Notes: generated by a model from the sequence alone, not told the origin. Shown: positions 680 through 40,981, counted from the first letter of the stretch. The stretch is 64,000 nt of DNA from Yuukianura sp. NJ FZ-2021 (GCA_046563655.1 CM102283.1:248001-312000), one strand, 5' to 3'. Numbers and translations are program-made.

Positions 680-738
680 ATACACAATCAAAAGGAGGAG
701 TATGGCGCCATACTTGTTAATTATTACCTATTTATTTT

Positions 739-2749: not shown

Positions 2750-2777
2750 TTACTTGTTTTGGAAATGGAAATATTGG

Positions 2778-8330: not shown

Positions 8331-8393
8331 GATCAAGAGTGATAAAAGCTGACAGCGCAAAGCAATATTTAATCAGTCAGAAAGCAGTCAGAC

Positions 8394-9409: not shown

Positions 9410-9641
9410 TTTATTAACACCACAATTCAGAGAACACGACTTGCAAATGTTGATTGTTGTAGAGGATTTTTTTTGTGAAAAGAAATTAGAAAAATCTTGT
9501 AATCGCAGAGCAAGTACAGCTCATGACCAACACAAGTGACGAACTAACGAAAAATTTCAATTTCTGACTATTGAAATACCTTATTTTCACCATCAATGTT
9601 AGTCATGACGTCAGTCAAGCTTTGTCACGTGAGGAGTCACA

Positions 9642-9897
9642 ATGTCTGAGAAGATTAAGTCCAACAAACGTTTTTTAAAATACATTTCCAGTTGTACACC
9701 GGCTCAGCGAGAAGCGTTATTACGTCATGCCACCCCAGACGAGATAAAGAGTCTTTGTGAGTGCGTCATGAATGCGTACCGCAAAAACGTTTCCCTAACA
9801 CCATCTGTCGTTGCTAAACTCAAACCGTTCCGTGGCACAATAACGAAAATTGCAAGGTATCCAAAGCAATCAATTCGCAAACAAAGATTGCTTTTAA
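9642..9897 (+). pseudogene. Small conserved Polinton protein, truncated by piggyBac MITE
   Basis: Nearly identical to 38482..38811 up to the TTAA at 9894-9897. Confidence 0.75.
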
Positions 9898-10872: not shown

Positions 10873-11320
10873 AAGTAATGAGTCAGTTGAGGGAAAGTGG
10901 TGTGGTGCCAGAAGATCTAGAGCACTATTAGGAACCAGAGACACCGACAACATCGCCAGAATATGACACCCCGGAGGTGCCAGGGGAGACTCCATGGCAT
11001 GATCACGTGCAAGAACGACGTGGAAAAGGTGTCCGGAGACGTTTATCGCAAACATGGGAGGAAATTGAGAATGCTGGAGCCTACAGTTAGGGAGGGGAAG
11101 GCCAGGCCCTCCCCCCGGGCTACTTTGGAGAATTCAGCGGGCCATGTTTAGATTAACCCACGGACAATAGAATTCCGATACAAGGGTTAAATTTCCAAGC
11201 ATTCCTACGTGCAATTGAGGGAATTCGGCGAAACCACTGTGAAAAATACCCACGCGCCATGTTTGCTATTTAATTGGTTGTTTTGTGTTTAATCGAACTA
11301 GTTACTTGCTAGACTTTACA

Positions 11321-12082
11321 ATGTCGAAATCATTTTATGTAACACTTCAGTCAAACGCTTCGGCAAACTTTTTGAACAATAAAATTTGTGATTTCAAAAA
11401 TCGACTTGGTACGGCAATTTCATTACCTCCAGGGCAATGGGAGTTGGCGCTAACGGATATCAGCTATACTGCGGGAATATCTTACATTAGTAAAGGTGAG
11501 TTGTTGTTTGTGAAATATCCCAACTCAAATTCTGTGCGAACGAGTGAAATTACAGCCAAACAGACTGCGGCTTCACTAAATGAAGTTGAACAAGTTCTTT
11601 CCTCAGCGTTGCCAAACTCAACTTGGCAAATTACAAGAACTGGAGTCAGCTACTCGCTTACACTTGAGACACCACAAGAAAAAGTTGAAACGACAGAAAA
11701 GATTAAGGATTTGCTGGGATTACGTACTACCGATTTGACGTGTCCAAAAAACACGTTTAAAGAGTTAAAAACAAAGTGTACTGGACGTAACGTTTTTCCA
11801 ATATTTCTATTATCTGGAAATACGAAATTGTTTGTGTATTGCAATCTCGCACGTCCACAGTTTATTGGCGATACAATGGCGCCATGCTTACGGGTTCTGA
11901 CATATAGCGGCGAAAACCGAGAGCAAAGACATCACGAATTTATTAATCCTCAATATGTGGATTTGGCTGTTTCTGAATTTGACATCATCCACATGTATAT
12001 ATTAAACGAGATGGGCGAAGTTGCGCCATTACAATTTGGGAACGTGACTGCTACACTACGATTTCGAGAAAAGAAAATATGA
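11321..12082 (+). CDS. Polinton minor capsid (penton-like) protein
   Basis: FYVTLQSNAS...F.NRL...L..QWELAL.DISY; LFVYCNL..PQFIGD..APCLR; F.NPQY; TLRFR. Confidence 0.85.
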   Translation: MSKSFYVTLQSNASANFLNNKICDFKNRLGTAISLPPGQWELALTDISYTAGISYISKGELLFVKYPNSNSVRTSEITAKQTAASLNEVEQVLSSALPNSTWQITRTGVSYSLTLETPQEKVETTEKIKDLLGLRTTDLTCPKNTFKELKTKCTGRNVFPIFLLSGNTKLFVYCNLARPQFIGDTMAPCLRVLTYSGENREQRHHEFINPQYVDLAVSEFDIIHMYILNEMGEVAPLQFGNVTATLRFREKKI

Positions 12083-12464
12083 GGGCAAACTATCAATACG
12101 GAGGATTTCAAGATGGCCGCCTTTTCTTCTCAGGCGTTCGCCGTCAGCGAGGGGCTGGCCTGGCAGGCATATTTGGAGCTGTGGCAAGATACCTTTTGCC
12201 ATTCTTGAAGAAATTTGTTTTACCACATGCGGCTACATATGGGTGACGTCAGTTGCTAAGGATAAGGTAGCTAAAAAGCAACCGCTTACGTCATCAATCA
12301 AGGAACATGGAAAACAAGCACTAAAGCGGGTCGGATCAGCTATTCTCTATCTGTCCGGTTCTGGAAAGCGAACGAAACGCAGCGCCATCCATGTTCCATT
12401 GCTCAAAACAAAACGAAAAATTCCAGTCAAATTCTCGCCTAAAAAAGGACGTTACTTATTTTAA
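12079..12464 (+). pseudogene. Basic core/membrane-active virion protein (QRGAG motif), frameshifted in copy A
   Basis: Homologous to intact 40594..40977, with +2 nt near 12236-12242. Confidence 0.7.
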
Positions 12465-12469
12465 AAAAG

Positions 12470-13771
12470 ATGGCTGTTCCCTACACATTTATCCGCTCTG
12501 AAACGCAATTGTTTGATGAGCCGCAATATGACGTCAGCTTAGCATCCACTCATTGCTCAGAGCACTACCCCATTACGTCAATTTCTGATCAAAACTCACC
12601 GATTGAGTTCTTTTTGCAAAGCAACGACTCACAATGGATTGATTTGGCAGAAACTAAGTTGTACATCAAAGCCAAGGTTGTAAAACCGGATGGAACAAAT
12701 TTTGCTGCAACCGATTCGATTACTACAGTCAACAACACCCTACACTCCATGTTCAATCAAGTGTCGATTTGGTTGAATGAACTTTTGATAACCCCAGCGT
12801 CAAATCAATATGCCTATCGAGCATATTTGGATACTCTTTTGAGTTACAACAAGGAATTCAAGAAATCGCAGGCTCAGTGTGCTTTGTATTTTCGCGAAAC
12901 TGACCCTGCAAACACTGATTCTAAAAAGGAGGATGGTTACAAGAGCAGATTCGAACTAACAAATACTTCCAAAGTATTTGAAATGATTGGTCGTCCATTT
13001 TGTGACATTTTTCTGCAAAACAAATATTTAATTCCGGGGGTTGACATGCGCATTAGTTTTGCTCGGTCAAGCCCAGAGTTTTGTCTCTTTGCTCCAGCTG
13101 ATACGAAAGCTAAAGTTGTTGTAACAGAAGCTCGACTCTTGGTGAAAAGACACACTTTGCTACCAGATTTGTTGACTGCCACGATTCAAAACATGGATAA
13201 GGGTCGTCATGCAACATATCCACTGAAGCGCGTCGAAATTAAATCGTACTCATTGTCACAAGGAAGTGTCGGCGACGTTAACGATTCGCTGCTGACTGGC
13301 ATGTTACCAGACAGAATCCTTGTCGTGATGGTGAGCTCCAAGGCATTCAACGGAGACGTCACGAAGAACCCTCTAGAATTTCAAGCTTTCAACTTATCAA
13401 GAGTCGAGGTTACAGTCAACGATGACATGACGTCATACCTCCCCTTACAGGTTGACATTAGTGGCGGCACCTACATTCAACTTTACAATAACCTTTTTGA
13501 GGGGTTGGGAATTTCAAACGATGACGTCGGCTTGGATATAACCCGGGAGTCTTTTAAAAAACACCCACTAATGCTTTACAACCTCCGCCACATTCGTGAC
13601 GGATTTGCATTGCCCAAATACGGTAACGTGAAAATTGACCTCAAGTTCAAGGAAGCCTTGACGGAAGCCGTAACTGTCCTTGTGTACGCGGAATATCAGT
13701 CTGTCCTCTACATTGACAAGAGCAAAAACGTCTACTTTAAGGATTTTTCAAACCACAACGCTATTCAATGA
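12470..13771 (+). CDS. Polinton major capsid protein (double jelly-roll, hexon-like)
   Basis: 433 aa intact. PIEFF...IDLAET.LYIK.KV, VNNTLHSMFNQV, YAYRAYLDTLL.Y, LP.RILVVMV...AFNG...NP.EF, VLVYAEY. Lies between penton and protease. Confidence 0.9.
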   Translation: MAVPYTFIRSETQLFDEPQYDVSLASTHCSEHYPITSISDQNSPIEFFLQSNDSQWIDLAETKLYIKAKVVKPDGTNFAATDSITTVNNTLHSMFNQVSIWLNELLITPASNQYAYRAYLDTLLSYNKEFKKSQAQCALYFRETDPANTDSKKEDGYKSRFELTNTSKVFEMIGRPFCDIFLQNKYLIPGVDMRISFARSSPEFCLFAPADTKAKVVVTEARLLVKRHTLLPDLLTATIQNMDKGRHATYPLKRVEIKSYSLSQGSVGDVNDSLLTGMLPDRILVVMVSSKAFNGDVTKNPLEFQAFNLSRVEVTVNDDMTSYLPLQVDISGGTYIQLYNNLFEGLGISNDDVGLDITRESFKKHPLMLYNLRHIRDGFALPKYGNVKIDLKFKEALTEAVTVLVYAEYQSVLYIDKSKNVYFKDFSNHNAIQ

Positions 13772-14097
13772 ACACCGAAGAAATTTATGGATATCTCGAC
13801 TGTTTTCTTAGAAAACAGCAATGTACTTACAGCGTTATTCCAAGCGACTATCTTTCAAGGTTTAAAAAGTCCTCCTACCCTTTGTGTTTAATCGTAAACT
13901 CAATGGACAGCACCCATCCTGGATTACATTGGCTAGCGCTCTACAAGCAATCAGAGGACTCTCCTTTAATTTTTATGGATTTTTATGGGGGTCAAATGGA
14001 TGATTATGGAACCTACTTTTCCGAATTTGCAAAAGGATTTCAAGTTATTCAAGGACGTCGACGACTTCAAAGCTATGAGAGCAACGTTTGCGGACAC
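13768..14097 (+). pseudogene. Adenain-type cysteine protease, truncated just after the catalytic Cys
   Basis: LIVN.....PGLHWLALY, FMDFYG, LQSYESNVCGH, followed directly by retroelement sequence. Confidence 0.85.
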
Positions 14098-15920
14098 AGT
14101 CACAGAAATTCGCAACTTAAGGTTTATAGGTCATAAATTGACACCTTAAATTACATTGTTTGTGCCACGAGGTACTAAACTGCAAAAAAAAACATAATAA
14201 ATCCGGAAGACTAAACTAAATTGGTGACAAAAAGGAAAACATTCTAAAAACAAACAAAATGTGAAGGCCGTTAGGCATCAATTTACTTTATTCTTTTTCT
14301 AAACCTGTAAGGCAGCGATTATAAAACAATGTAATAAAAATTGATTGGGAAATGACTTCTAAAACTTTAGTTAAGTGCTAATGTGTGCAAGGAGGGATAG
14401 AAGAAGGCTAATCGTGATTCCTGTTCATCCGTGAATTTAACTAACATGAGACAAACGAGTTAACGCGTGGTGGAGAGCCGTTGTACACAAAAAGAAAATA
14501 ACAAAATGTTTATTAACTTCTAGGCTCCGTCGATTTTTAATTAAGATGTGAGTGTGATTCTTCCAATTCAATGCCACTAGGTATTGCCAAATCTCCTTTT
14601 GGCAACTCGAATTCAACTTTACCTATAAAATGTTTCGCAGCATAAACTTTTGTTCAAGATGATATTTGAGATACTGTGGTACTTTTCAAGGTTCTCAGCT
14701 CAAAAGTGACACAGATTCTACATTCCTATCGACATATTGATACACTAAATTGTTATGCGTAACTTAGCCCGAGGCGTAAAATGCTAAAGCTGTTTTTGTA
14801 AAATGTAAGGGTCAACAAGTTCAACGGGCCACTTCGAATAAGTGCCCTACCCTGATGACCGCTTTTTGACGGGGCGTGGTCACTTGGCGCTGAAAGGCCA
14901 ATTGTATTTGTAGGTATTGAAAGTTTGACCCTTAAGGGGTCCGTAGATTGTAGAGTTGACCCCTGGTCAACTCCAGAAATGATCTGGAAAAGAGGACTGA
15001 TCGCGAGTAGGACTGGAAACAGACTGATCTTTATTCTCTGAATAAACCCAATAAACCAGTAGCAGCTACATCCGAATGGCTACAAGTGGAGAAAGGTAGC
15101 TGTAGCGTCGTTCGAATTCTGTCAGACGGATTATGTGTCGGCATGTCTGAATTTTGACAACTTTTGTATTCTATTGGATGATTATGTATACTATTGTTAG
15201 AAAACGTACAACAGAATACTTATTTACTACTTTGTCGCGCCTGAGCAGAATGTGGAACGCTGTAAGAAAGCTACATAAGGTACTGAAGTTGCTCTTGTTT
15301 AGAAATTGTGATCAACATCAGTTGATTACAAATTCGGCTGTTTAATTTTAATTACTAACTTACATTTATCACTTGTTTATAGTTTCTGCAATAATACAAC
15401 GATAGTCCCTGTATCTTTACTGTAGTTGCGTTATTTTTGTTTTTGGTTAAAATGACTCAAAGGTACAGATTGATCTTAAATGCCTAAGAAATCGAGGTTC
15501 TGGAGAAACCATCGAAAGAGTTTGTCTAACGATCTTTTGTGTCATCATTGTCCTCGTTCTTCAATTAAATTTCAAGTTACTCAACTTTAGAACTGCTGAA
15601 GACGACAGTTCGAGCTACATCACATCAAGTAAGCAGTGACACTTCAGTCTGAGATTCCAGGGATACTAGAATTGAAAGGTCAACCTGCGCGTAAGTGTTT
15701 AACCTAGTACATGAATTTACGAAAAATTGAGTTGCATGGGATAAGACCAAATACTATCCTACAGTACCAGTATTTCATTCCAGCTTCTTAGTACAATTCT
15801 ATAAAACAAAATCCCTAAGACTTTACTAGTTACCGATATACCCTCACTTTTGAGACTGGTTTGGACAATTCCATCGGATGTTGCCTAAATTATTATTATA
15901 TTTTTATTTGTCATAGAATC

Positions 15921-17948
15921 ATGAATGTTAACGGTCGTATGAAGCTGTACACACCCAGGCATATCAGACGTAAAGCTCTTCAATCAGCCAGGCGAATGTC
16001 AGGGCAGATTAGACAAGTCCGACTGTTTCCGACTCCGGATGTTCCAATTGGTCTGACTGGTATCGAGCAGGGCTCCGCTACTGTTTCATCCGATGTGCAT
16101 GAGGAAATTAACGGAATCATTAATAGTGTTAGCAGTGGCAGTGATAATGATGAAAGGGATTTGGCAGATTCTTCTGAAGTTCCTAGCTCATCAAAGGTTG
16201 ACACGATTAGTGAATCCCTTCGGAATTGGGCGCTGAGGAATAATGTGACTCATTCCGCGTTGACTGATCTCCTACGTGTTCTTTCCGAGTTTAACGTTTC
16301 TGATACCCTGCCAAGAGATGCTCGTACGCTTTTACAAACACCGCGAAGTGTAGTGGTTCGTGACATGCCTCCTGGTACTTATTGTCATTTCGGACTAAGG
16401 GCAAGGATTGAAAGTTTACTTTTAAAATATCAAGAAGTAGCAAATACATGCCCGCCTTCTCTGCTACATTTACAGTTCAACATCGATGGACTACCGTTAT
16501 TTAAAAGTAGCTCCGAGCAGGTCTGGCCCATTCTTTGTCATATTTGTGAATTAACTTTTCCACCATTTGTTATTGGCATCTTCTGTGGATCGGGAAAACC
16601 AGAAAGTGTTGAGTTATATTTGGAAGAGTTTGTAAACGAACTTTTCGAATTGACACAGTGTGGAATTCAAACCGATACTTTACATCATGATGTTTGCATC
16701 AAGAGCTTCGTTTGTGATGCTCCGGCTCGGGCATACATTTTAGGAATCAAGTCTCATTCTGGCTATTCATCTTGTGGAAAGTGTTGGATTTCCGGTGACT
16801 ACGTGCGAAATAGGGTTGTGTTTTCCGGCGTCAATTTCAAACTAAGAACAAATGAGGAATTTCGAAATCACGTAGATGAAGACCACCATTTAAAGCATTC
16901 GCCACTTGAAGTACTCACATCTCTAGATTTGGTAAAGGCAGTTCCATACGAATTTATGCATTTAGTGTGCTTAGGTGTCATGAGGAAGTTGATCTTACTG
17001 TGGCTTCGTGGTAACGTTACAGATTTCAGACTGGCTAGTGGAAGTGTCGACATAATTTCTGAAAATCTCCTGGCACTTGCTTCCCAAACTTGTGTTGAGT
17101 TTAATAGGAAGCCTAGATCATTAAGGGAAGTTGATCGCTGGAAGGCTACCGAATTTAGGCATTTTCTTCTGTACAGTGGTTTAATAGTGACAAAGAGTGT
17201 GCTACCACCAGAGCATTATGATTTGTTGTGTGTTCTATCTGTGGCAATTAGAATTCTGGCAACAAAATCTCTATGTATGAAGCTAAATAGTTATTCAAAT
17301 TCTTTACTTCTTCATTTTATCAAGAAATTCGAGAAACTATATGGAAGACACAACATGTCCTATAACGTCCACGGTCTCCAGCACCTTGCAGAAGATGTGA
17401 GAAACCATGGAGCTTTGGATTCGTTCAGTGCATTCAAGTTTGAGAACTTCCTAGGAGTGTTAAAAAAATTCGTTAAATGTCCAAAGACTCCTATCAAGCA
17501 GTTGCACAACCGCTTAACTGAACATTTTAATTCAGAACCGTTACAAATTTGTAAAACAAACAAGCCAGAATTACATCAGCAGCATTATCTAGGTCCAGTT
17601 CCTACAGGGTTTAAATGTGATCAGTTCAAGTCTCTGAGCTTAAACCAATTTACTTTGAAGCGCAAGGTTCCTGATTGTTTTTGTGAGGTGAAAAGTGGTT
17701 CTATAATTCAAGTGAAAAACATTTGTCGTTCTTCCGAAACAAATTTAGTTTACGTTTTTGGACTTGAGTTTCAATCCAAATCATCAGTGTTTCGACATCC
17801 TTGTGACTCGAAGCTTCTTGACATTTTCAAACTGAGTAATCTAAGTGAGGAGTTAAAGTTGTGGGAAATAAGTTCTATTATTCAGAAACATCAAGTTTAC
17901 AAACTGAATAATGAAACATTTGCTTTTCCATTAGTTCACTCTCAATAA
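15921..17948 (+). CDS. EnSpm/CACTA-type DDE transposase
   Basis: NIDGLPLFKSS...WPIL, FVCDAPARA, H.GY..C.KC, YEFMHLVCLGV, WKATEFR.FLLY, YNVHGL.HL, SAFKFENFL. Uninterrupted ORF (ORF track starts at 15861). Confidence 0.9.
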   Translation: MNVNGRMKLYTPRHIRRKALQSARRMSGQIRQVRLFPTPDVPIGLTGIEQGSATVSSDVHEEINGIINSVSSGSDNDERDLADSSEVPSSSKVDTISESLRNWALRNNVTHSALTDLLRVLSEFNVSDTLPRDARTLLQTPRSVVVRDMPPGTYCHFGLRARIESLLLKYQEVANTCPPSLLHLQFNIDGLPLFKSSSEQVWPILCHICELTFPPFVIGIFCGSGKPESVELYLEEFVNELFELTQCGIQTDTLHHDVCIKSFVCDAPARAYILGIKSHSGYSSCGKCWISGDYVRNRVVFSGVNFKLRTNEEFRNHVDEDHHLKHSPLEVLTSLDLVKAVPYEFMHLVCLGVMRKLILLWLRGNVTDFRLASGSVDIISENLLALASQTCVEFNRKPRSLREVDRWKATEFRHFLLYSGLIVTKSVLPPEHYDLLCVLSVAIRILATKSLCMKLNSYSNSLLLHFIKKFEKLYGRHNMSYNVHGLQHLAEDVRNHGALDSFSAFKFENFLGVLKKFVKCPKTPIKQLHNRLTEHFNSEPLQICKTNKPELHQQHYLGPVPTGFKCDQFKSLSLNQFTLKRKVPDCFCEVKSGSIIQVKNICRSSETNLVYVFGLEFQSKSSVFRHPCDSKLLDIFKLSNLSEELKLWEISSIIQKHQVYKLNNETFAFPLVHSQ

Positions 17949-19677
17949 TGTCGTTTCCCCGGTACTGGATTCTGGCTCACTTTCCGGATTCAGGAGAATA
18001 CGAAGTAGCCCCATCTTCATGGCTTGCAGAAGACGGATTTACTTGTTTTTGGCCACCATGGAAGAACATGTCAAAAGTAGTAGCAGCGGTGGAAAAAAAT
18101 ATTCCGTTGGACCCTTCCTGGCCTTCATATCGTTTCAGAATTATTGGAAATAAAATATTTGGTAAATTCGATTTTTAAAATTCGATCATACGGAATTTGA
18201 AGTAACTTTTCAATTGTTTTTTTTTTCAGACAACTACGAGGCTGCCGCGAGCAAGTTAGAAAATGCAGCCTACACTTCTGACTTCAGTGAAAATGAGGTG
18301 CCTGCAAAGCGACGGCAGCAAAAGAAGAGAAGTTATTCCAGCTCTCCAGAATCTTCAACAAATCAAGTCAACGGGAAAAATACACGTGATCGATTACCAG
18401 AGTTTCCAAAAGGTTTGCGAGATACCTAATTTATTCTCATTCTGACGTGTAGTATCGTTACTTTAATTTCATTTCTTACATTTGTAGATATTGCATGTGA
18501 GCTAGACGAATCCTCATTTACCCTGGGAATAGTTGCGGATGAGGCTGAAGTGACGATAACTCAGGGACAAAGTACCGCCAACACCAATGTCGGCACACAA
18601 AGTTCTGTGTCAGCTGTTGTAGTAAAGCACAATCAAGGCACAGAAACTCAAATCATGCCAGGTCCGACCCACTTACTATAAATTTAATTCTAAAAGTAGA
18701 TTTTTCTTGATTAATATAACCTCGTTTTCTAGTTACAGTATCACATCCCCTACCAGTGTCGGACGCTGTTTTCGAAGACAGAGAAGCTGTACTTGACACT
18801 ACAAATGGTAAATTACAATACGATAGCAACATAAATCAATAATCACTTCCACATGAAAACCAAAACATAGTGTTATTGGTATGTCATTTTTTTGTAGGTA
18901 TGATAAGCTACCTTCTCAAGAAACTGGAGTCTCAGGATCTTTTGTTACGTCAAATGCATGCAAAAATGGACAAGGTTTGTCGTCAGTATAAGCTTAAGAA
19001 TTCTGTCTAATTCAAAGCTCAGTAGTCATTTCATCTAAACTTCTTCAGTTTACTAAAGTTCGACTTTTTTTAAATACAGCTGATCAACATCGTGGTGTCA
19101 CTCAGTACCAAGGATCAATCCGCAGTACATCACGACCGTACTGGACTTCCAACATTTCCTATTGGAGAAATTGAATCCCTTGAAGCCTTGAACGAAAAGG
19201 TTGCTGGCGACATAACAATGAAGGAAAAGCTGGTATGCTTATGCCAGTTTGTACAAAACACTTATATTTTGAATGTACAGTTTCTTTTAGCTAACCAAAA
19301 TTATTATATATCTAGGTAACATACTTTCAACTGATAGGAGGAATGGATGCTGAAAATGGAATTAGGAGAATGATTGACCATTTTCTCACCGTGGAAATTC
19401 GTACTAAGCTCACATGGTGCGGCACAGCGCAAAAGAAGGGCTTCAAATTTTATGAATTTCCACGTATTATACTTGGTGAGTAACGTCTAACAAAATAAAT
19501 ACTGCATATTAGCACTTCTTTACTCAGTCTTTTGTCGTAGATGCTCTTGCGAAGAACAATTTGACGGCGATTGGAGCTACAGAAGCTCTAGTACAAAGTG
19601 TTTGCATGACCAAGTTCAAAAACGCAGCCAATGCAGTAAAAATCAAGGACAAGCGAGGCAACGATCATAGAGATTGA
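17948..19677 (+). CDS. Multi-exon accessory ORF2 of the CACTA element (DUF4806-like)
   Basis: VAPSSWL...CFWPP N-terminus; GT-AG introns of roughly 60-150 nt; last exon ...KFKNAANAVKIKDKRGNDHRD* ends at 19677. Exon boundaries are approximate. Confidence 0.65.
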
Positions 19678-20324
19678 ACAATGAAGGGGCAAAACTTGGA
19701 ACCTTAATTTAGTGTAGGCATCACGAAATTAAATAACTCATCTTCATTTCATTAAGGTAAAATGCAATTTATTTTGTGAGCTCCCCGTTTTCGCTTATCT
19801 CAAACAACTTTATTATAATCAATTAGTTTTAGCAGCTCGAACTGTTAGTTTTTACTGTTTTTAGAGAAATAAACTTCTCGGACTTAAAATTCGCTTTTGA
19901 GTGCATTTTTTTTAACTCCCACATGTGGACGTCGAAAAGGTGTAACATGTAGCACATTATCAGAACGCTACGGAACCTTGCCACTAGAGGTCTTTTTCGC
20001 TGCTGAAAATGTAGCTACAGTCGCAGTGAAATAGCCACCTTTCTGGCGGACATTTCACTCTGCATTAGCATTCTGATATATGTTGTAGAAACCGGGTCTT
20101 CTTTTCGACGGCAACACTTTCTCGTGTTGCCGTCTAAGATACATCTTTTAGCAATGCTGTGGTTTATTGGGAAGATCTGAATCAAAAATAAGAAATCAAA
20201 ACTAAAAGCTAAACTGTGCTGTGCGGTGTGGTCTGTCCTCCTCGTGGCTCTCTCCTCTCCTCCTCCTCCTGCTCGGACGGTGGCGAATACTGCGCCGTCA
20301 CATTCACCACGACGAGAGCCCCCT

Positions 20325-22003
20325 CTACTGGCGAAGCGTCGTCTTGCGTCTGTGTCGGTTACGATGGTGGGAAAGCCGTCTACGTCGATTCTCTTGCTGT
20401 CGTCTTTGGAGGGTGGAATTGATGAATCCCTTCCTGGCAGTCGGGTTCGGACAAGTACTGTGCTCGTGTGAAGTGTCGTGACAAAGGTAGCATCTTCTGG
20501 TGCTGATTGGTGCATCGGGAAGTGGAATTTCTGGAAATATGTCCGGCTCATCATCATAGTTCACATGGATTTCAATGTCTGGTTCTGTAGCTTGCATGTC
20601 AACATCAGGAGCTTGAATCGGCGAAATGATTTTTGGTTCTGGTACAATATGGTGTAAATTGGGAGTTGGTTCATCAGCTTCAGATTCCGTTTCTGGTTCT
20701 GATTCAGGAGTTCGTTTCTGGTTCACGACCACGATTTTACTTCTGATTTGGACATTCAAGTCAGACCAACTATCTTCGCTATCGTCGTCGGTGCTGACGT
20801 ATGATGGTGCTCTGGTTAGTGGTGCTGGAATGTTGGCGATTACATGGTAAACTTGAGCGATGGCGTCACAGATTTGATTTTGAATTTCAAGTGAACATTT
20901 GTAAATCTTAACTACGTCTTTTGGACATGAAGGAGCCACTATGGCTAAAGTTCTCATTTGATCGAATGTCATAATCCAATGTACTTGTTTGTCTAGAATT
21001 TTTGCCTGATTAAGTGCCCATTGGTACAATTTGCTAAAAATACACTTCTGAATTTGATTGAGTGCTTGTGCTTGCTTGCCTAAAACAATTTCTACCGTTG
21101 TTTTGTCACACGCACGGTACATTTTTAAAGATTTCTCCATAGATACTAGGAAAATTGGTAATTTTGCTTCTAACTTATGTACAAAGTCTAGTTGAAGGTC
21201 GCTGCCACTCGCTGCGTCCTTCCTTTTCTTAACACATTGATTCCAGATTAATATCAAACTATAACTATCATACCAAGCATATCTGAACAAATCCTGTGGT
21301 AAACGACTGAGCTTATCTCTCACTGTCCAATCTGCTGCTTGAGCATCCTTTGACACCTCTACATCAAGTAAATATTTACACATCGTGGAAAGTGAAGTAG
21401 CTTCAAATCTAGCGTCTACACCGAAAAATAACATATGATACAATTCTTGTAAGTCTATTATAGGGAAAATGAATATGTCAAAGTCACGCTGCGTCTCATG
21501 AGTTAATCATTGTCGCTGCCAACTAGAATTTTGCCAATATTCGTACAACAAAAGATTTTTGGGAGATTCTCCTTAAGCCAATTACAAATCGGGGGAACAT
21601 CTATCACAAAATCATGATCCTCTACTGAAATTTGAATAATAGTAATGAAATCTTTGTAACACTTAGTCTGATGAAACTCCACATCTACAAAAAGTAACTG
21701 TTTCTGAAGTAAAAACTCTAACATCTGATCTGCATGATAACTAGTCTTAATCCAGTGATGAGTTCTAAAATCTGGTACTTCTAATTCTCTAAATAATGAC
21801 AAATCTGGGTTCCAATTACGAATTTGATTCTCAAAGGGGTGTACTCTTGGAATTTTAGGCTCTATAGCAAAATTTACATTCTGTCTCATCTTTAAGAATT
21901 CGGGATACAAATCTTACGGTCTAGCTTCTACGGACTTCCATTTCAATTTAGCTTCTTTCTGTGCTAGTTTCCATTTCTGAGCCTGTCTCTGCTTGCTATT
22001 CAT
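20325..22003 (-). pseudogene. Rrp6/EXOSC10-like DEDDy 3'-5' exoribonuclease + HRDC + CCHC knuckle (retrotransposon extra ORF)
   Basis: HPFE; ExoI FVDVEFH; IIQISVEDHDFVID; ExoII VGSDND..QRDF; ADWTVR; ExoIII YAWYDSY; HRDC LYQWALNQAKILDKQVHWIM; CYLCHDTSHEHSTC. One stop (~21914) and one frameshift (~21495). Confidence 0.85.
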
Positions 22004-22224
22004 TTTGAGGGTACAGTCGCTGCCTGAATCGCTGCGTCTGTACTGTAAATAACCAAAAATACTAAAATTAGTCTAAATCAGAATCTTAACTAATTTCAAC
22101 CTAGCCTAAGTTATTTTCAACTTAACCTAGTAATTTCAATTTAACCTAAAATGATTTCCTTAACCTAAGGCGCCAACTAACTAAATTCTTAATCTAGCTT
22201 AACTAAGAGCTCTTCTAACCTAAC

Positions 22225-23880
22225 TTATGTCCTAAATCCTGCTAATTGCCTGTAGTTTACTGGTTTTCTGTCTCTGAGCTGTCGTTTTTCTGGTTCTTCT
22301 GGCATTTCTTCTGGAATTTTGATTCGAACTGTCTCGGTATCTCTTGGAAAATATGGTTTTAAGTCACTGACGTGTCTAACTCCTGCTAACTCTCTTTCTG
22401 GATAAGTACAAATTTGAAATGTAACTGGAGTGACTTGTTTGACAATAACATAAGGTCCTATCCGCTTTGGAGCTAATTTTTGAGCTATACCTTCGTCTTT
22501 GTTAGATTGTACTCTGTTTCTAGTCAAAACAAACTGATTTTCATCAAACGAAACTTCTCTACGATGTTGATCATAGTATTTCTTGTATGTAGCTTGAGCT
22601 TTGTCAATATTCGTTCTGACCCAACTAATTAGATTCTTTAAGTACTGATTTAATTCAATTGCATGAGACTCTGGTAACTCGAAATTTTCCTTTTCTGGTT
22701 CTGAAATTTGTCTGTCGAACGGCAAACTAATCTCACGACCTAAGTTTAACATTGCTGGTGTTACTTTAGTACTTTCGTTACAGACTGTTCTTATTGCAAG
22801 TGCGAATTTTTGGATATGTAAATCCCAACTCGAATGTTGACAGTCTACAAATGCACAAATCATTGCTTTAATGTTTCTATTTATCCTTTATGCTAAATTT
22901 GGCTGGGGATGGTACACTGCGATGAATCTATGGTCGATATTCCAAGCTTTACAACATTTTTTCATTAAATTAGACAAAAATTGAGATCCGTTGTCTGTGA
23001 TTATCGTTTTTGGACTTCCGTACCTGCAGAATACGTGATCCTCTAAACAATCTACAATCTTTTTAGCCGTTGCTTCTCGTAACGGAAACATTTCTGTCCA
23101 CTTTGACAATTGGTCGACTAGAACTAACAAATACTCATTTCGTCTGCCTCCTGCAGTAACCGGAAGTGGACCAATTAAATCTGCATAAATGACTGAGAAA
23201 ACCTCTTTCGCTGCTCTAATAATTCCCATAGTCCCTGCGGGTTTTAAGTTATCATATTTGACTTCCTGACAAACTTTGCATGTTTTAACGTAATTTGCTA
23301 TATCTTTGTTCATGTCTGGCCAATACACTCTGCTTTGAACTCTGAATTTTGTTTTTCTGACCCCTGGATGACCTGAATGAGGTTCATCATGTAACTCTTT
23401 TAGAACCAAATTTCTGAGACTTTTAGGCACAACAGGTAAGTACAACTTAACTCTATCCTTAACACTATTCTTATCTCTATTCTTAACACTAATCTTAACA
23501 CTAACGCTAGCTTCGTCTTCGTCTGTACGTACTTTCTTTTCGGAACGAGGAGCATCTTCGCATCCCACATTGTTCCTTACGAACGGAGAGCTCTTCGGCA
23601 TCCCACATTGTTCTTTTAGACGCTCTTGGTTCTTAGGGCTATCTACCCTTTTTGCTCTACCAGGCACTGCCGCTGGGAGTCTACCTAGGCCTTTCTCTTC
23701 GGTATTCTGTACAAAACAACTTTCGTTTGTAGAACCGATCTGTGGATCAACTCTGTCCACTTGTGGGGTCATGCTACCCACTTTGCGCGTCCGCAAACTT
23801 CTATTTTTCTTTGTGTGCACTATCCTAAACAGGATTCCATCTTTTATAACATAATTTTCTAAATTGCATGATTTTTTAAC
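22225..23880 (-). pseudogene. Ty3/gypsy pol fragment (integrase)
   Basis: HHCC finger (HDEPHSGH...CKVC), ADLIGPLP, TDNGSQF, YHPQPN, GPY motif. Stop at 22888. Confidence 0.92.
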
Positions 23881-25122
23881 CCTTTTTGTTACTTTATTAT
23901 TCTAGTAACTTTATTAAAATAAAAACTTACGATTTCATATTGTTCTAGAGCCCAGTTTTGAATTGGGCGGACATCAAACCCAGTTCCCATACTTCGGAAG
24001 AAACTGTTTTGTTTCTAATAAAAAATTAAATAGTTATTCTGTTGCAAGAAAATGAACGAGACCAACACCCAGGTAGTACATATGTACGTGGTACGTATGT
24101 GCTACTTGGGTGCAAAGCTTGCAGATTTTTTTACAAAACCCTGCGCAAACTCTGACACCTTATTGCAACCATACTCATAATCTTCGACAGCCAACTTAAA
24201 CCTAACCTAATAAAAACTTATTGTGTTACACTTACAGGTGTTCTTCCAAATTGTTTAGTTTGGATTCCTCTTCCATTCAGTACTGACTTCCGGCTCTTTG
24301 CTTTCTAAACAAAATAACAAACAAATTTTGAGATGAAAGCGTAAAAAAAAATAACAGCAATATCAAGACATAGTAACAATCAATGTTAGGTTAAGTCAGG
24401 TTACACTTACAGGAGTCCCACCAACTTGTTTAGTATTGCATCCTCTTCCTTCCTGTACTGAGTTCTGGCCTTTGTTGTTCTAAGCAAAACGACAAACAAA
24501 TATTAAAATGAAATCGTAACAAAAAATAACACCAAATTAAAAAATACTAACAAAAACATCAAAAATAAGATCCTCAACCTTATGTTGTACATGTGAAATT
24601 GTGTAAACATTAAATAAAAATTTGAACTGTAATAAAAATGTTATTGGTACCTTGTGGTTTTGTAGTTTGTTTTGTAGTTTCAATGCTTGCCATTTTTTCC
24701 CCATTTTTAAACTAAACGTATTAAAGCTTCTGCAAAATTTATTAACTTTCTTCTTAAAATTCTTTCTCAGCAACTGGGGAGGGTAGGGTATACGATTTAG
24801 TATTAGTTGGTTATTGTCGTCGAATGGCTTATAGCATTTTTTGTCATCTTGTACTAACGAACGGATGACAATAAACCAAAAGTGTGCAAGCAACTTTTTT
24901 GCAAGTTGAAGTTATATCCTTTGGTTCAGAGAACCGAAAAGGCGTCGTGTCAGTTCAACACAAAGACAATCAGACTTGGATGGGAAATTGACAGACTGCA
25001 TTTTTTGCCATCAAGTCATAAATACCTGTGGCAACTTGAGATTTGCTGCAGGCAGTAGTGGCTTACAGCCCTCATCAGAGAAGCCATTGCTTCCGAGTTT
25101 CGGGATCCAATTTGGTTTGGAC

Positions 25123-25947
25123 TCAGAAGACGATGAAAAAATCCCATTTGTCCACCTCCAGCTTCAATTGTTTGAGGGAGATGAAACATTGGTTGATGGT
25201 GTCGATGACCTTCCGTAAGCCAGAAGTGGTGTCAGAGACATTTGGAATGGAGAAGAGCTGTTGGAGGTGGGAAGAAGCGTTTTCCCGCTTCTTTTTGTAG
25301 CGTTTCTCCACCAACGCCCACGCTTCTTTGAAATTGAGGTTGGTCAGTGGAAATGATTTGGCAATGGAGGCGGCATCTCCGGTCAAGGCATTTTTTAGGT
25401 ACATTAATTTTGATGCACCTGAGAGTTTTTTGTTTTCGATGACTGCGGCCTTGAAGAGGTCGGAAAACTGCTGCCACTCGGAGTAGCTTCCGGAAAATGT
25501 CGGTGGTTTGGTGCGTTCCAATTGGAAATCGGAACCATCGGGGAGCTCTTCTGTTTCGGTGGAAGATTTGGATGCTTGTTCTGCTCGGAGCTTGGTCCTT
25601 GCAGCGATGTTGCACTGTTCGCGTGCGCTGAGGATTTGAAGTTGACACTTTTCCAGAAGTGTATCGCAGAGGTCAAGGGTCACTTGGTGGGACTGGAGAA
25701 CTTGGTGAGAATCCTTTACCACTGAGCATGCCAGGATGACTTTTTCCCTCCAGAACTCCAGTTGCTTTTCCATTTTGGAAAGTTTGCCCTCTTTGACCGT
25801 GACCTCTAGTGAGTTGAACTTGCTCCATCTTTGAGGGTCAACGGTCTCGGAGAACTTTTGAGCACTAATTCTGAAGTGTTCAAGTCCAAAAACTGCGTGC
25901 TCGTAGGGGATGTCGAGGTCAACCATCATTTCCTCTTGTTGGCTCAT
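25123..25947 (-). pseudogene. BEL/Pao gag fragment (DUF1759-like)
   Basis: PTFSGSYSEWQQFSDLF...KLMYLKNALTGDA...NFKEAWALVEKRY, paralogous to the gag in 56119..57714. Confidence 0.85.
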
Positions 25948-26009
25948 CTTGAGAGATTAGGTGAAAGGTCGTGTCACACACTACTCACTTTTACCAAAAT
26001 CGAAAAAAC

Positions 26010-26461: not shown

Positions 26462-27720
26462 GTGAACAACTTGAGTACTTAAATGAAAACTGTTCACTAA
26501 TTATTTAGTGAACTACTATGTTCACAATTTATCTACTTACATCACACTATGTTCACTAGTTATTTAGTGAACTAAAATGTGTGAACTTGACTACGAAAAT
26601 CACAAATGTTCACTGATTAGTTAGTGTACCACCAATGTGTTCACGAGTTTTATACTTACGACTCACTTTGTTCACACGTTATTTAGTAAACTAAATATGT
26701 GTGGACAACTTGATTATGAAATTACAAAATGTTCACTAATTATTTAGTGAACTACTAATGTGTCCACAAGTTATCTACTTAGCTTACACTATGTTCACTA
26801 GTTATTTAGTGAACTAAATAATTGTGAACACCTTGACTGCTAAAATCACAAAATGTTCACTAATTATTTAGTGAACCACCAATATGTTCACAAATTATCT
26901 ACTTACCTTGCACTATGTTCACTAGTTATTTAGTGAACTGAAATATGTGTGAACAACTCGACTACTGAAATCAGAAAATGTCCACTAATTATTTAGTGAA
27001 CTACTATGTTCACAATTTATCTACTTACATCACACTATGTTCACTAGTTATTTAGTGAACTAAAATGTGTGAACTTGACTACGAAAATCACAAATGTTCA
27101 CTGATTAGTTAGTGTACCACCAATGTGTTCACGAGTTTTATACTTACGACTCACTTTGTTCACACGTTATTTAGTAAACTAAATATGTGTGGACAACTTG
27201 ATTATGAAATTACAAAATGTTCACTAATTATTTAGTGAACTACTAATGTGTCCACAAGTTATCTACTTACCTTACACTATGTTCACTAGTTATTTAGTGA
27301 ACTAAATAATTGTGAACACCTTGACTGCTAAAATCACAAAATGTTCACTAATTATTTAGTGAACCACCAATATGTTCACAAATTATCTACTTACCTTGCA
27401 CTATGTTCACTAGTTATTTAGTGAACTGAAATATGTGTGAACAACTCGTCTACTGAAATCAGAAAATGTCCACTAATTATTTAGTGAACTACTAATGTGT
27501 CCACAAGTGATTTAGTGAACTGAAATATGTGAACAACTTGACTAATGAAATCACAAATGTTCATTTAAAATTTAGTGAATCACCAATGTGTTCACAAGTT
27601 ATCTACTTACATCACACAATGTTCACGAGTTATTTAGTGAACTAAAAATATTTACAAATTATTTAACAAACTAAATATGTGTGAACAACTTCGTTATCGA
27701 AATCACAAAATGTCCACAAA
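26462..27720. repeat. Tandem satellite: ~61-bp hairpin monomers, ~122-bp dimers, 488-bp higher-order period
   Basis: Core GTTCACTAA-TTAT-TTAGTGAAC. Registers recur at 26491, 26979 and 27467. Confidence 0.9.
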
Positions 27721-28642
27721 TTATATTTAATTTAATTTAATTTCCAGGTGCGTCTACACTTGTACACTTCAGTATTGAGCCAAGTTGAGTTCAAGTTAAA
27801 AAGTATGTAAAATAATTATTTGTCAAGAACGTTCCTTAACCCAGTTAAGAAAACCAAGAATATGTCCGAAAATATTTACTAAAAACCAGCAAAGTATTTA
27901 ACTAGATACAATATTTACTGAAAAAGGGCGGAATGTTTATGAACATTACGGGCATGGGTAGCTAAATAAACCTAACCAATTTGCTTGGGTCATTTCACTC
28001 ACAAAAAATTTCTAAAGTAAATTGGATTCTGTATCTTTATTATAGCCCAGGCATTTTTCAAACATATTTTCTTATTTGAATTTTCATTTTACTAGTCTAG
28101 AAACACAAAATTGCCGCCAGCAACGATAACTCGACGCAACAGGGAAAACAGGAGTGAGAAATACAACGCTAACTACGTCAGAACAATGGTGAAAAAAAAA
28201 ACATCTCGCCTTAAGGCCTGTTTATACCGTACCTCTGGATGGATTTTTCTTCCACTGGACGCCAATCCAGTCGTTCATACCAGATTTGCTTTCTCTGGAT
28301 GGATCATCCAGAGAAAGTTTGGGTGAATTTTTTATCCATGGATGGATTTCCGTCCGTTCACACAAAAAATTCCACTGGATGGATTTTTTTTCCACTGGAT
28401 TTTCCTGTAGTGCTGAGAGATGGGAGAAACGATCCAGACCAAAAGTTCAACCTCTTGAACTTTTGCTCTGGATTGAGCATGAAATTTGTTTCACTTTGCC
28501 CCAATCTCACACGGGAGCGCGAAACAGAAGGTTTGAAAGACAGGACAAGTCACATTTTAAAAAAGTGTTAAAAAAATAGAACCACATAAAATTAGGACCT
28601 CACTTTAGAGACTTATTTAGTTTTACTAAAAACTAAAAGTAA

Positions 28643-29514
28643 ATGGATAACGATAATCCAGAGAACGACGGAGAGGCGAAGGAGTTTTTGATAACAGCAG
28701 TACAAAAACGTAAAGTTCTCTACGATGCGAGTTCATCATCGAACCGGAACAAGTTCTTGCGGGAGCAAGCATGGGAAGAAGCCATGAAGCCAAGCCATGG
28801 AGCCATGCTATCAATTTAATTTAAATTGTAAAAGAATGTTTATTATTACAGCTCAGTGGTGTCGCACAACGTGGGGAAAACTGAAGGATTCCTACCGTAA
28901 GAAGAAGCAACAGCTAATTGGGAAAACAGGTCAGGCTCGAAAAAAAATCGAAGCTTGGACGTATTTTCATGCACTTCGGTTTATAGATGACTACTACCCA
29001 TCTGCAAGGTCTGTCACCTTAATAAAATACTCAACTATCAACAAATGCAATGTATAACTAGGTTTACGATGTTAAATTACAGCACATCTGGAAACTTGGA
29101 TTCACAAGTTAATGTCCAAGAGGAAGGGGAGGAAACATTGGATGTAAAAGATACTTCGCAACCAATGAATTATATTGTAAGGAATTCAAATACTAGTTTC
29201 TAGACAGAAGAATGGAGCCATTCTAAAATTATTCGTTTTTATAGGATTTGGAAGTTCAGGAAGTCCCTCCAAACGCAAGAAAACGGAAATGGAGTGGTAC
29301 TAGTCCAAGTGATCGGGTGGAAGCGGAATTCGTGCGATACTTGAAGAGACCGACCATGACACAAGATGAGTTTTATTATTTTGGGATGGATGTCGCTGAA
29401 CAGCTAAGAAAAATGGAACCTGAAACATCCTCGTTCCTGAAGTTCCAAATTTCGAAACTGCTGTTTGAATGCAAACATCCCACAACAATCACTGTAGTTA
29501 ATGCGGACGCCTGA
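28643..29514 (+). CDS. MADF + BESS-like protein (spliced), Harbinger ORF
   Basis: MDNDNPENDGEAKEFLITAVQKRKVLYD...REQAWEE, WGKLKDSYRK, WTYFHALRFI, FGMDVAEQLRKM. The first intron donor is unclear. Confidence 0.7.
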
Positions 29515-29572
29515 ATATACAAGCAGAAGAAGAGTATGGAGCCATACTAGTTAATTATTACTTACTTATTTT

Positions 29573-30535
29573 CTAGTAAGTATTATATCCAGGTAGTAAA
29601 GCTGCTTTTTCGTCTTGCCAAGAAACCTTTCCGTTTTGAGAGATGAAATGATCAGCCAAGTTGTCACGCATTTGTTTAGCCGAGTTTGTCGTATTGTGTG
29701 AACTAGAAAACTTAACAGGAGTTAAGATTACATTTGCGGATGTTTCAGTTCTCCAACCTCCGTTACTTTCGTCATCTGTGTCCACATAACCAGGGGGACA
29801 GTACATTCGGCTGGAGGGTTGCAGGCCCTCCTCTTGCTTCCTCACGAAATTATGAAGAACTGTTGTACCTGAAAATTTTAGGACTAGTTTCTATGTCTAG
29901 TTTAGCATGGAGCCATGCTGTAGTCATACGGATTTACGTCCTACCTCTTACAATCCTTTTCACTTGAGTATCGTCTGCGTACAGGCGGCGTTGAAAAATT
30001 CGATAGCGGATGACCATTATCCCAAATGTATTTTCTATAATACGGCGAGCACGGGACAGTCTATAATTGAAAATTCGTTTTCTAGCATCCTTGATAACTC
30101 CTGCATATGGTCGCATCATAAAGTCTGACAATGCAAAGGCTTCATCTCCCACAAGAGTACACGGCTGAACTAAATTTGTATTTGGGATTCTTCGATCGGA
30201 GGGAATGTCGACGGAGCCTGCAATTTAGCAAAATTAAACTGAAATTAACTTTTTATTAAGTGAGTGTGGATCCACACTGGAGTTTTTTGTTAATTAACCT
30301 TGTAGTAGGCCTTTCCCAAGTGCTGAATTTTGGAATATCCCACCATCGCTTTGCCTGCCGTACGCTCCGATGTCCACGAATGTAAAGTTGTAGTCCGCAT
30401 CGCAAGTCGCAAGCAAAACGATACTGAAAGACCCCTTGTAATTGTGATAGTTTGTATCTTGTTTTGATATCTTTGGTGCAATGAGGTTGAGCAGTATATC
30501 AAAAGTGGATGGTGTCATCCTTGTATACTGAAAAA
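29573..30535 (-). pseudogene. Harbinger transposase copy B
   Basis: Same motifs, introns and internal deletion as 739..1700. Confidence 0.85.
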
Positions 30536-30928
30536 AATGTTCTGGTTGGTTTTAGTTTTTCGAGGTTTGTGGTTGGTTTCGGTTTTTTCCCATTCTCTAT
30601 TGAATCCCTCTCCTGCTGTGTCTTAACAGGGTAAATATGGAAATGGATGGAGATTCAGCGCCGCTGGAAGTCTGGCTCAGGTGGACGTCCACAACTCAAA
30701 ACCTTAAGAAAAGATGAAGGAAATGGAAATGAGAAATAAGAAAACATTTTTTGAAAAACATATTTGAAAGGGGCCTTTTGTTTCATTTTTGTTTGATTTA
30801 GGACGCCTTGACTAAATACAAATTAAAATTTCAACGAGGAAGTGGACATGTTGTGGGTTTTAGAAGAAAATAAATTCTAAAAAGTCATTCCCAAATGCAC
30901 ATTTTCTCTTCCTCTGTATTTTACTTGT

Positions 30929-31584
30929 GGTTAGATTGTCGTTGTTGGGGCAGTGAAAAGTTTTTCTGTTTTTTTGGTCAAAATTTTTGAAAAATTTTTT
31001 TTTCGTTTTTTTCACTATTTATTATGTTTCAAACGTTTTTGGAACGTTTGGAGCAAAAAAAAATTTTTGACCTTAAGGGTCCCCCTTCCCATTTTTTTGA
31101 AAATCTTGACTCGAAAATTTTCAAAGTACGAAAACTGAAGTGGTCACCCCTGACAACCTCAAAAATGACCCTTACGAAAGTTGTTTAGAATCATGAGGTG
31201 AGTATTTTTTGTCCTAAGGACTATGACCCTACGACCACTCCCTGAGATCAGAGGTCAACACAAAGAAAAATTGGGGAAATGTTCGCATTGACCTCTGACC
31301 TCAACGAATGGTCGTAGGGTCATAGTCCATAGGACAAAAAATACTCACCTCATGATTCTAAACAACTTTTGTAAGGGTCATTTTTGAGGTTGTCAGGTGT
31401 GACCACTTCAGTTTTCGTACTTTGAAAATTTTCGAGTCAAGATTTTCAAAAAAATGGGAAGGGGGACCCTTAGGGTCAAAAATTTTTTTCTTAAAAAGTG
31501 AAAAAAACGAAAAAAAATTTTCTTCGAAAATTTTGACCAAAAAACAGAGAAAATTTTCACTGCCCCAACAACGACAATTTAACC
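30929..31584. mobile_element. Fold-back MITE 1, copy B
   Basis: TTACTTGT TSD at 30921-30928 and 31585-31592. Confidence 0.85.
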
Positions 31585-31612
31585 TTACTTGTTTTGGAAA
31601 TGGAAATATTGG

Positions 31613-32304
31613 GGTTAGATTATCGTTGTTGTGCTAGTTCAAATTTTTTCTAAGTTTTTTGGTCAAAATTTTTGAAAAAATTTTTTTTCGTTTTTTTTCA
31701 CTTTTTATCACTTTTCAAACGTTTTTGGAACGTTTGGAGCAAAAAAATTTTTTTGACCCCAAGGGTCCCCCCTTCTCACTTTTTTGAAAATCAGGAGTCG
31801 AAAATTTTCCAAGTACAAAAAACTGAAGTGGTCACACATGACAACCTCAGAAATGACCTATGAAAGTTGTTCGGAATCATGAGGGGAGTATTTTTTGTCC
31901 TATGAACTATGGTCCTACGACCACTCCCTGAGGTCAAAGGTCAACGGAAAGAAAAATTGGGGAAATGTTTGTGCTGACCTCTGACCTCAATGAGTGGTCG
32001 TAGGGTCATAGTCCATAGGACAAAAAATACTTCCCTCATGATTCTGAACAAGTTTCACAGGGGTCATTTTTGAGGTTGTCAGGGGTGTCCAATTCAGTTT
32101 GCGGACTTGGAAAATTTGTGAGTCCAGATTTTCAAAAAAATGAGAAGAGGGACACTTGGGGTCAAAAAAAAATTTTTGCTCCAAACGTTCCAAAACGTTT
32201 GAAAAGCGATAAAAAGTGAAAAAAACGAAAAAAAAAATTTTTCGAAAGTTTTGACCAAAAAACTTAGAAAAAATTTGAACTACCCCAACAACGATAATCT
32301 AACC
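31613..32304. mobile_element. Fold-back MITE 2, copy B
   Basis: AATATTGG TSD at 31605-31612 and 32305-32312. Confidence 0.85.
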
Positions 32305-37171: not shown

Positions 37172-37234
37172 GATCAAGAGTGATAAAAGCTGACAGCGCA
37201 AAGCAATATTTAATCAGTCAGAAAGCAGTCAGAC

Positions 37235-40977: not shown

Positions 40978-40981
40978 AAAG

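Follow-up and report, generated by a model that had tools for sequence, protein, structure and literature searches.

The stretch of DNA analysed here, referred to as the window, comprises 64,000 nucleotides of one strand from Yuukianura sp. NJ FZ-2021 (GCA_046563655.1 CM102283.1:248001-312000). On its minus strand, just past a Ty3/gypsy-type integrase, lies an intronless frame of about 560 codons (20325-22003, copy A) which, judged by its motifs and profile matches, is an Rrp6/RNase D-type gene with a 3'-5' exonuclease (EXO) domain, an HRDC domain and a zinc knuckle. This open reading frame (ORF) opens with an ATG at 22003-22001, followed by 29 codons and an in-frame TAA at 21916-21914. Beyond that stop it continues for 136 codons (21913-21506), ending in the motif GSDND and a stop; the frame changes between about 21505 and 21490, that is within about 14 nt, and the final segment of 393 codons (21506-20328) is closed by a TAG at 20327-20325. 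In all, the damage amounts to one in-frame stop and one frameshift.

The translated frame contains the motifs VDVE, GSDND, YAWYD, HPFE, IIQIS..DFVID, QRDF and ADWTVR. The first three are ExoI, ExoII and ExoIII of a DEDDy 3'-5' exonuclease domain (21237-21757, minus strand), which is split by the frameshift, and all five catalytic residues (D, E, D, Y, D) are present and aligned to the catalytic columns of the family. Both parts exceed the curated cutoff of Pfam DNA_pol_A_exo1 (23.6 bits), the first half matching profile positions 2-87 of 173 (E 2.2e-7, 31.3 bits) and the second positions 92-167 of 173 (E 1.7e-5, 25.1 bits), so that by these adjoining matches the two halves are one split domain. 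In sequence matches to proteins of known structure, the N-terminal piece finds yeast Rrp6 (2hbj, E 9.7e-7), the HPY/F linker included, and the 393-aa C-terminal piece finds the EXO and HRDC domains of human EXOSC10 (3saf, E 8.5e-7, query residues 6-205). The HRDC domain lies at 20892-21044 on the minus strand, or about residues 155-205 of the 393-aa piece. Scored alone it stays below the Pfam cutoff (E 0.0094, 16.3 versus 23.8 bits); the EXOSC10 alignment extends through it, and hhalign places the piece at 98.9% (E 1.1e-17, residues 4-205) against relatives whose HRDC is significant. Of the domains named by an initial annotation of this locus, the exonuclease is thus recovered by Pfam on both halves, and the HRDC by the hhalign and EXOSC10 alignments but not by Pfam.

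The HRDC domain is followed by an acidic linker, a CCHC zinc knuckle of the form CX2CX4HX4C (20451-20492, minus strand, recognised by sequence) and an Arg-rich tail that runs to 20328. A 23-nt all-purine tract on the minus strand (20248-20270), 55 nt 3' of the exonuclease stop, is a candidate polypurine tract. At the other end, about 80 residues lie ahead of the EXO domain, and a Pfam scan of the frame gave no match to PMC2NT. The 166-aa N-terminal read-through, in which X marks the stop, aligns with an Orchesella protein, P0022, from the first residue of both (33% identity, E 5e-26), indicating that the ATG at 22003 is the genuine family start; the in-frame stop falls within a conserved N-terminal motif of that family. 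Motifs, Pfam and hhalign therefore agree with the initial annotation in placing an EXO-HRDC-acidic linker-CCHC-Arg tail frame 220 bp past the integrase and on the same strand.

The integrase of copy A (22225-23901, minus strand) carries Integrase_H2C2 (E 4.8e-24), rve (E 1.5e-14) and a Tf2-type SH3 domain (SH3_Tf2-1) by Pfam, and is interrupted by an in-frame stop at 22890-22888. Between its stop and the exonuclease ATG lies the stop-rich spacer of 220 bp (22004-22224, minus strand), in which the 3' end, a pyrimidine-rich stretch followed by AG, somewhat resembles a splice acceptor. More of pol is preserved next to a second copy of the exonuclease gene, copy B, where the reverse transcriptase (RT) thumb, RNase H and integrase occupy 47190-49773 on the minus strand with several stops, and where the RNase H match (RT_RNaseH, E 1.1e-30) is continuous with the integrase frame. 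An RT fragment with the YxDD region (51238-51507, minus strand; RVT_1 E 3.6e-12) stands apart, with foreign sequence between it and the remainder of pol. The order of pol in copy B is hence RT, RNase H and integrase on a single strand, as in Ty3/gypsy.

The exonuclease ORF of copy B (43714-46967, minus strand) shares both the stop and the frameshift with that of copy A, as the initial annotation had noted, and holds a 1.4-kb insertion (44569-46001) bordered by a 144-bp duplication. Comparing the window with itself aligned 1-9897 with 28831-38737 (98.6% identity), 10873-15046 with 39388-43562 (98.4%), 20172-21180 with 43561-44568 (98.5%) and 21037-23885 with 46002-48848 (98.7%). The two copies are accordingly parts of a segmental duplication (1-23885 and 28831-48848, 25-29 kb, 98.4-98.7% identical, flanks included), which carries the gypsy fragment and a Maverick-like element together, about 15 kb of neighbouring sequence having been duplicated jointly with exonuclease and integrase; the homology between copies stops at 23885, within the integrase region of copy A. 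On the strength of these alignments, copies A and B are a single dead, 5'-truncated insertion duplicated with its flanks, not two transposition events. Since the flanks are shared at 98.4-98.7%, occurrence in both copies, to which the initial annotation had given weight, offers no independent support, both copies being dead members of one duplication. As the stop and the frameshift are common to both, the two lesions are older than the duplication, and the insertion would thus have been broken before the 25-29 kb block was copied. Judged from these lesions, the exonuclease locus of the window is a dead relic that yields no enzyme.

Copies A and B diverged after the death of the gene. Since the duplication, copy B has acquired its 1.4-kb insertion in the exonuclease gene and extra stops in pol. 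Copy A alone has a 5.1-kb insertion with perfect 10-bp terminal inverted repeats (15047-20171), 153 bp past the exonuclease stop, that is probably a DNA transposon; copy B represents the uninterrupted state at this site. The insertion holds a 709-aa ORF on the plus strand (15819-17948) with no Pfam match.

What kind of protein the intact gene encoded can be approached through its relatives. A HMMER search with the 393-aa piece against 1.84 billion representatives gave 62 matches at E ≤1e-3, three at ≤1e-10 and none at ≤1e-30. Outside relatives are at most 48% identical to the window piece, this value being reached by a 144-aa fragment (P0002). An intact protein of 545 aa (P0003) is 29% identical over query residues 6-385 and has the same EXO-HRDC-CCHC layout as the window ORF; in Pfam its EXO domain scores E 9.7e-18 and its zf-CCHC E 8e-4, the latter, at 19.8 bits, just below the 20.8 cutoff. 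P0003 and a further relative, P0031, share with the window ORF both the knuckle and the motif after it. Long Rrp6-type proteins are 25-31% identical to the window sequence, with a best E of about 1e-6. In a quick maximum-likelihood tree of 59 rows, from which two knuckle-only matches, close cluster mates and fragments below 250 aa (P0002 excepted) were left out, the 31 long Rrp6-type rows formed one clade (support 100, branch length 1.64); two of these rows, P0009 and P0014, were confirmed to contain PMC2NT. The other 28 rows are short proteins of about 500-550 aa, with about 160 residues before QRDF and a basic tail, that stay outside this clade; among them the window sequence clusters with P0002, P0003 and a metagenome contig, L001 (support 96). 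Support values are SH-aLRT only, and with long branches on the short rows the inner order is unreliable. On this tree and the domain content, the window gene belongs to a family of short proteins, old and diverse, that have no PMC2NT and fall outside the Rrp6 clade. Near-identity to a host EXOSC10, which the initial annotation had named as speaking against its reading, was not found, and a fresh capture from the host is not borne out by a family of this age and diversity.

In the 26-row family alignment, the D and E of ExoI are kept in 22 of the 22 rows covering them and the Y and D of ExoIII in 25 of 25, while the D of ExoII is kept in 21 of 25 rows, with E in two and Q in two. This conservation argues for active enzymes among the intact members. 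When the intact P0003 was modelled with AF2 on the family alignment (mean pLDDT 77.6), residues 378-473 came out as disordered, followed by the knuckle and a long C-terminal helix. In Foldseek, the model matched the EXO and HRDC domains of human RRP6 (3saf) over 329 columns (E 6.4e-15), with RNase D (1yt3, E 3e-11), Nibbler (7jw2, E 1.9e-9; 7jw6) and WRN among the lower-ranked matches.

Among the 30 of the 62 HMMER matches that were traced to source records, the springtail Orchesella dallaii accounts for at least seven representatives and at least 12 accessions on several contigs; the remaining traced matches come from metagenome or run assemblies and are often annotated as "ribonuclease D". 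Five O. dallaii accessions (CAL8113214, 217, 220, 223 and 226; representatives P0056, P0073 and P0074) lie on one 5.39-Mb contig. Their numbers are three apart, a pattern that, going by the numbering only, would be expected from tandem three-gene units. The family alignment A4 shows, immediately ahead of the HPY/F linker, a basic N-terminal motif common to the short proteins, and an acidic stretch ending in Trp inside the disordered linker; several of its sub-groups have a conserved basic C-terminal motif where others have the knuckle. Searches with family profiles extended the family little. Profile A2 found in metagenomes a single contig of 1082 bp, L001, with a frameshift and a stop and without flanks; profiles A2 and A3 found no match among viral contigs and none among genome contigs. 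In protein searches in which the word index was limiting, the A4 profile retrieved only P0003 itself and one plant Rrp6-like protein, and the second ORF piece, at longer and near settings, had no match, its relatives being found by the full HMMER search.

Contigs from public runs bear on the question of whether the exonuclease gene belongs to the retrotransposon. Four runs, from two samples and two studies, were compared as contigs with copy B at a likeness of at least 80%, and 695, 640, 276 and 248 contigs fitted, the majority of them 90-99% alike. So many contigs at this likeness indicate that the sequences belong to a multi-copy family. Among the contigs listed, three, from three runs of one sample, span the end of the integrase, the spacer and the first 45 or so exonuclease codons at about 4% divergence: X1 record 6 (46829-47534, 27 differences from the window), X3 record 18 (46748-47604, 35 differences) and X2 record 12 (46922-47351, 15 differences). 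The junction between integrase and exonuclease is therefore present in other, non-identical copies, and from the sequence of these contigs we consider it likely that the exonuclease gene lies within the transposed unit.

Taken with the order of pol, these observations lead us to read the exonuclease-bearing region as the 3' part of a dead, 5'-truncated Ty3/gypsy-type long terminal repeat (LTR) retrotransposon, in which the exonuclease would be the third gene after pol; we put the probability of this reading at about 0.65. Several points weigh against it. Upstream of the RT, neither window copy has a gag, a protease or a 5' LTR, so that it is a truncated copy that is described here and not its family; what lies upstream of the RT fragment is other repeats and a Harbinger-type transposase. 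No LTR, target-site duplication or primer-binding site was found in the window, and a sensitive BLAST of the 3' flank (42650-43720) against the window returned no second copy except the duplication partner. With both copies truncated at the 5' end and no LTR found, a position of the exonuclease inside the LTRs is unproven. The bridging contigs could be older segmental duplicates of the composite locus rather than transposed copies. Contig depth cannot rank regions, and the lower depth of the Maverick-like flank was for this reason not counted as evidence. Finally, for comparable third ORFs (ORF3s) in retroelements of bdelloid rotifers, the published account reports no clear benefit (Rodriguez et al. 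2017, PMC5408684).

The exonuclease gene is not the only gene in the window with an HRDC domain and a knuckle. A 627-aa ORF at 6333-8216 (minus strand), with a partner in copy B at about 35170-37050, starts as a Maverick/Polinton-type integrase (rve, E 1.9e-12) and goes on into an HRDC domain (E 2.6e-10), which a long linker connects to a CCHC knuckle with a basic tail behind it. This is the module order of the C-terminal half of the exonuclease ORF, 12 kb apart. Likeness between the two is restricted to the HRDC domain (hhalign 76%, E 2.2e-5) and the knuckle, and in BLASTP the tails match in the knuckle only (7/15, E 0.007). Among ten Polinton/Maverick papers listed by a literature search, none mentions HRDC. 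The sequence 3' of the exonuclease gene is itself read, on weak grounds, as Maverick/Polinton-like: the nearest Protein Atlas clusters of the integrase are Preplasmiviricota integrases at a score of 0.77 (Atlas scores 0.77-0.79), which we take as a lead only, and the flank has a weak Adeno_IVa2/AAA match. Capsid-like and protease-like labels for other ORFs of this flank are no more than impressions, for which Pfam, PHROGs and PDB sequence searches gave no support. A 193-aa ORF fragment at 63204-63785 (minus strand) looks by eye like the 442-aa ORF at 12443-13771 of the Maverick-like element and may be a second, diverged copy of it at the end of the window.

Further mobile elements surround the locus. 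A BEL/Pao retrotransposon at 55414-62024 is bounded by a 440-bp LTR pair (55414-55853 and 61588-62024, 95.7% identical) and has long gag-pol frames with DUF1759, Peptidase_A17, H2C2 and DUF5641; a separate BEL-type gag fragment is found at 25123-25956. A tandem array at 26462-27724 has nested periods of about 62, 123 and 488 bp, with units 80-99% identical. The Harbinger/PIF-type transposase ORF lies at 52323-53579 (DDE_Tnp_4, E 2.7e-18), and within the stretch compared, the public-run contigs pile up most at 51752-52400, adjoining it.

Such crowding makes it conceivable that the exonuclease gene is foreign to the gypsy element, either as cargo of the Maverick-like element or as a stand-alone multi-copy gene brought beside the pol fragment by nesting. 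At least five transposon kinds occur in the region; in copy B, which has no insertion at this point, Maverick-like sequence is reached within about 1 kb of the gene's 3' end, and an LTR was not found; and the Maverick-type integrase repeats the order of HRDC, linker, CCHC and basic tail. We nevertheless hold this explanation to be quite improbable, because the exonuclease follows the integrase on the same strand after only a short spacer, because non-identical contigs in three runs span that junction, and because a purine tract follows its stop; a knuckle and an intronless frame are also typical of retroelements, and an ORF in this position has a published precedent (PMC5408684). An intronless, broken, Rrp6-like frame might likewise be a processed pseudogene of a host EXOSC10/Rrp6 gene that landed beside a retrotransposon. 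This last explanation is close to refuted: the long Rrp6-type proteins are distant in identity and E value, the window sequence lies outside their fully supported clade, and the ORF has no PMC2NT and aligns start to start with the short relatives. Moreover, Rrp6 is without a CCHC knuckle, whereas P0003 and P0031 share that of the window, and the exonuclease family is multi-copy.

A different alternative accepts the gene as a gypsy ORF3 and concerns its purpose, which would be counter-defence instead of processing of element RNA: the enzyme would attack small RNAs of the host, namely precursors of piRNA or siRNA, by degradation or trimming, or disturb nuclear RNA surveillance. The catalytic residues are conserved. 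Two DEDDy relatives, Nibbler and Mut-7, have roles in small-RNA pathways, and EXO domains of Nibbler are among the fold matches of P0003. The best matches in both fold and sequence are Rrp6 and RNase D, not Nibbler. That the same kind of ORF occurs in unrelated rotifer retroelement classes, namely LTR and Penelope-like (Athena) elements, speaks against an LTR-specific job such as trimming of the tRNA primer and to that extent favours counter-defence (PMC5408684). On balance we regard counter-defence as unlikely, though less so than a gene foreign to the gypsy element.

Returning to the exonuclease as the third gene of a gypsy element, one may ask what the protein would do. In Rrp6, PMC2NT and the C-terminal region provide the links to Rrp47/Mtr4 and to the exosome core, and the isolated EXO-HRDC core is an active, distributive 3'-5' exoribonuclease. 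The third gene would encode just such an "Rrp6 core", consisting of linker, DEDDy exonuclease and HRDC, and would do so without PMC2NT, the domain by which Rrp6 is held to Rrp47/Mtr4. Where Rrp6 has its own C-terminus, this protein would have an acidic, disordered linker leading to a nucleocapsid-like CCHC knuckle with a basic tail. Intact members of the family are thus most likely free-standing, exosome-independent 3'-5' exoribonucleases. The knuckle and the tail would keep the enzyme on RNA, and the enzyme would serve the element by trimming 3' ends of RNA or removing them. As its substrate, the element's own template or primer is the foremost candidate, at somewhat less than even odds; host small or surveillance RNAs are a less likely choice, and the same can be said of some other substrate or none at all. 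Counter-defence, primer trimming and proofreading, the uses suggested by the initial annotation, are thus conjectures at this point. The presence of the rotifer ORF in both LTR and Penelope-like elements favours a general role at RNA 3' ends or in host interaction over an LTR-specific step (PMC5408684).

With the wider family in mind, one may speculate further. According to this speculation, retroelements of soil invertebrates, represented here by gypsy and by many diverged springtail paralogues, have "Rrp6-core" exoribonucleases belonging to a widespread and old family, which lack the exosome-docking parts and possess a nucleocapsid-like knuckle and a tail. The family would go back to one ancient take-over of a nuclear RNA-surveillance nuclease, which now works against or around surveillance, and the module of HRDC, linker, knuckle and tail would be exchangeable among unrelated mobile elements, an idea suggested by the same module order in the Maverick-type integrase 12 kb away. 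We hold this broader picture to be doubtful, and offer it as a tentative proposal.

Few retrotransposons have accessory enzymes, and what these do is mostly obscure. If the exonuclease is indeed a regular gypsy gene outside rotifers, the DEDDy ORF3 is no longer a bdelloid curiosity, and it would gain a defined architecture, an Rrp6 core without exosome-docking parts joined to an RNA-binding knuckle and tail. The natural intact members (P0003 and the springtail paralogues) would then be usable for assays of activity and substrate, and one could test whether a retroelement employs a 3'-5' RNase to replicate itself or to counter RNA silencing and surveillance by the host. There is also a consequence for annotation, in that genes of this family now go under the names "ribonuclease D" or "HRDC domain-containing protein", which treats them like genes of the host.

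Among cellular enzymes, the window ORF is most similar to Rrp6/EXOSC10, with which it shares the pre-EXO linker with the HPY/F motif, the DEDDy EXO domain and the HRDC, and which gives the best sequence and fold matches. Unlike Rrp6/EXOSC10, it is without PMC2NT, and its C-terminus is unrelated, with a CCHC knuckle and a basic tail after an acidic linker; it is also shorter (about 560 aa, against 650-1176 aa in the long rows), outside the Rrp6 clade, multi-copy and transposon-linked. Bacterial RNase D, which functions in tRNA 3'-end maturation and has two HRDC domains, is similar in that a DEDDy EXO domain is followed by HRDC without exosome-binding parts, and differs in having no knuckle and basic tail; it matches less well than Rrp6. 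A mobile or viral genome with its own 3'-5' exonuclease is also known from Dada DNA transposons, nidoviruses and arenaviruses. In Dada, the DEDDy domain lies inside the transposase and is proposed to process cleaved DNA ends (PMC3706591). In contrast to the DEDDy enzyme of the window, the viral ExoN are DEDDh enzymes of separate origin, serving proofreading or immune evasion (see also 10.1101/2021.02.01.429129). A DnaQ-like exonuclease is listed among the known accessory domains of LTR elements in PMC6338049.

The closest published counterparts are the DEDDy RNase D-like ORF3s of the bdelloid rotifer LTR elements Juno and Vesta, a kind shared with the Athena/Terminon Penelope-like elements (PMC5408684), which confirms the statement of the initial annotation that extra DEDDy ORFs have been reported in rotifer LTR elements. 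As in these, the window ORF is an extra DEDDy RNase D/Rrp6-like ORF after pol and on the same strand, and the rotifer ORF3s, too, are described as a retroelement-specific pool apart from cellular homologues. Unlike the rotifer ORF3s, which have DEED, the window ORF has DEDD, with E at ExoII in two of 25 family rows. The main text of PMC5408684 contains no occurrence of HRDC and no C-terminal CCHC knuckle, and reports only a Cys-His-Cys motif, in Vesta2 and Vesta5. Rotifer sequences were not among the 30 of 62 HMMER matches traced, and the comparison is one of descriptions, by which the two groups could be one family or independent acquisitions. A search for a published EXO-HRDC-knuckle ORF in an LTR element found no description, most subscription journals, Repbase reports and supplements lying outside its reach. 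The initial annotation's candidate for an undescribed system therefore stands in part: the DEDDy ORF3 as a kind is in print for rotifers, and a version with HRDC or a knuckle was not found in print. Within this known kind of retroelement gene, what is new here is probably the combination of an Rrp6 core with HRDC and a knuckle, and its occurrence outside rotifers.

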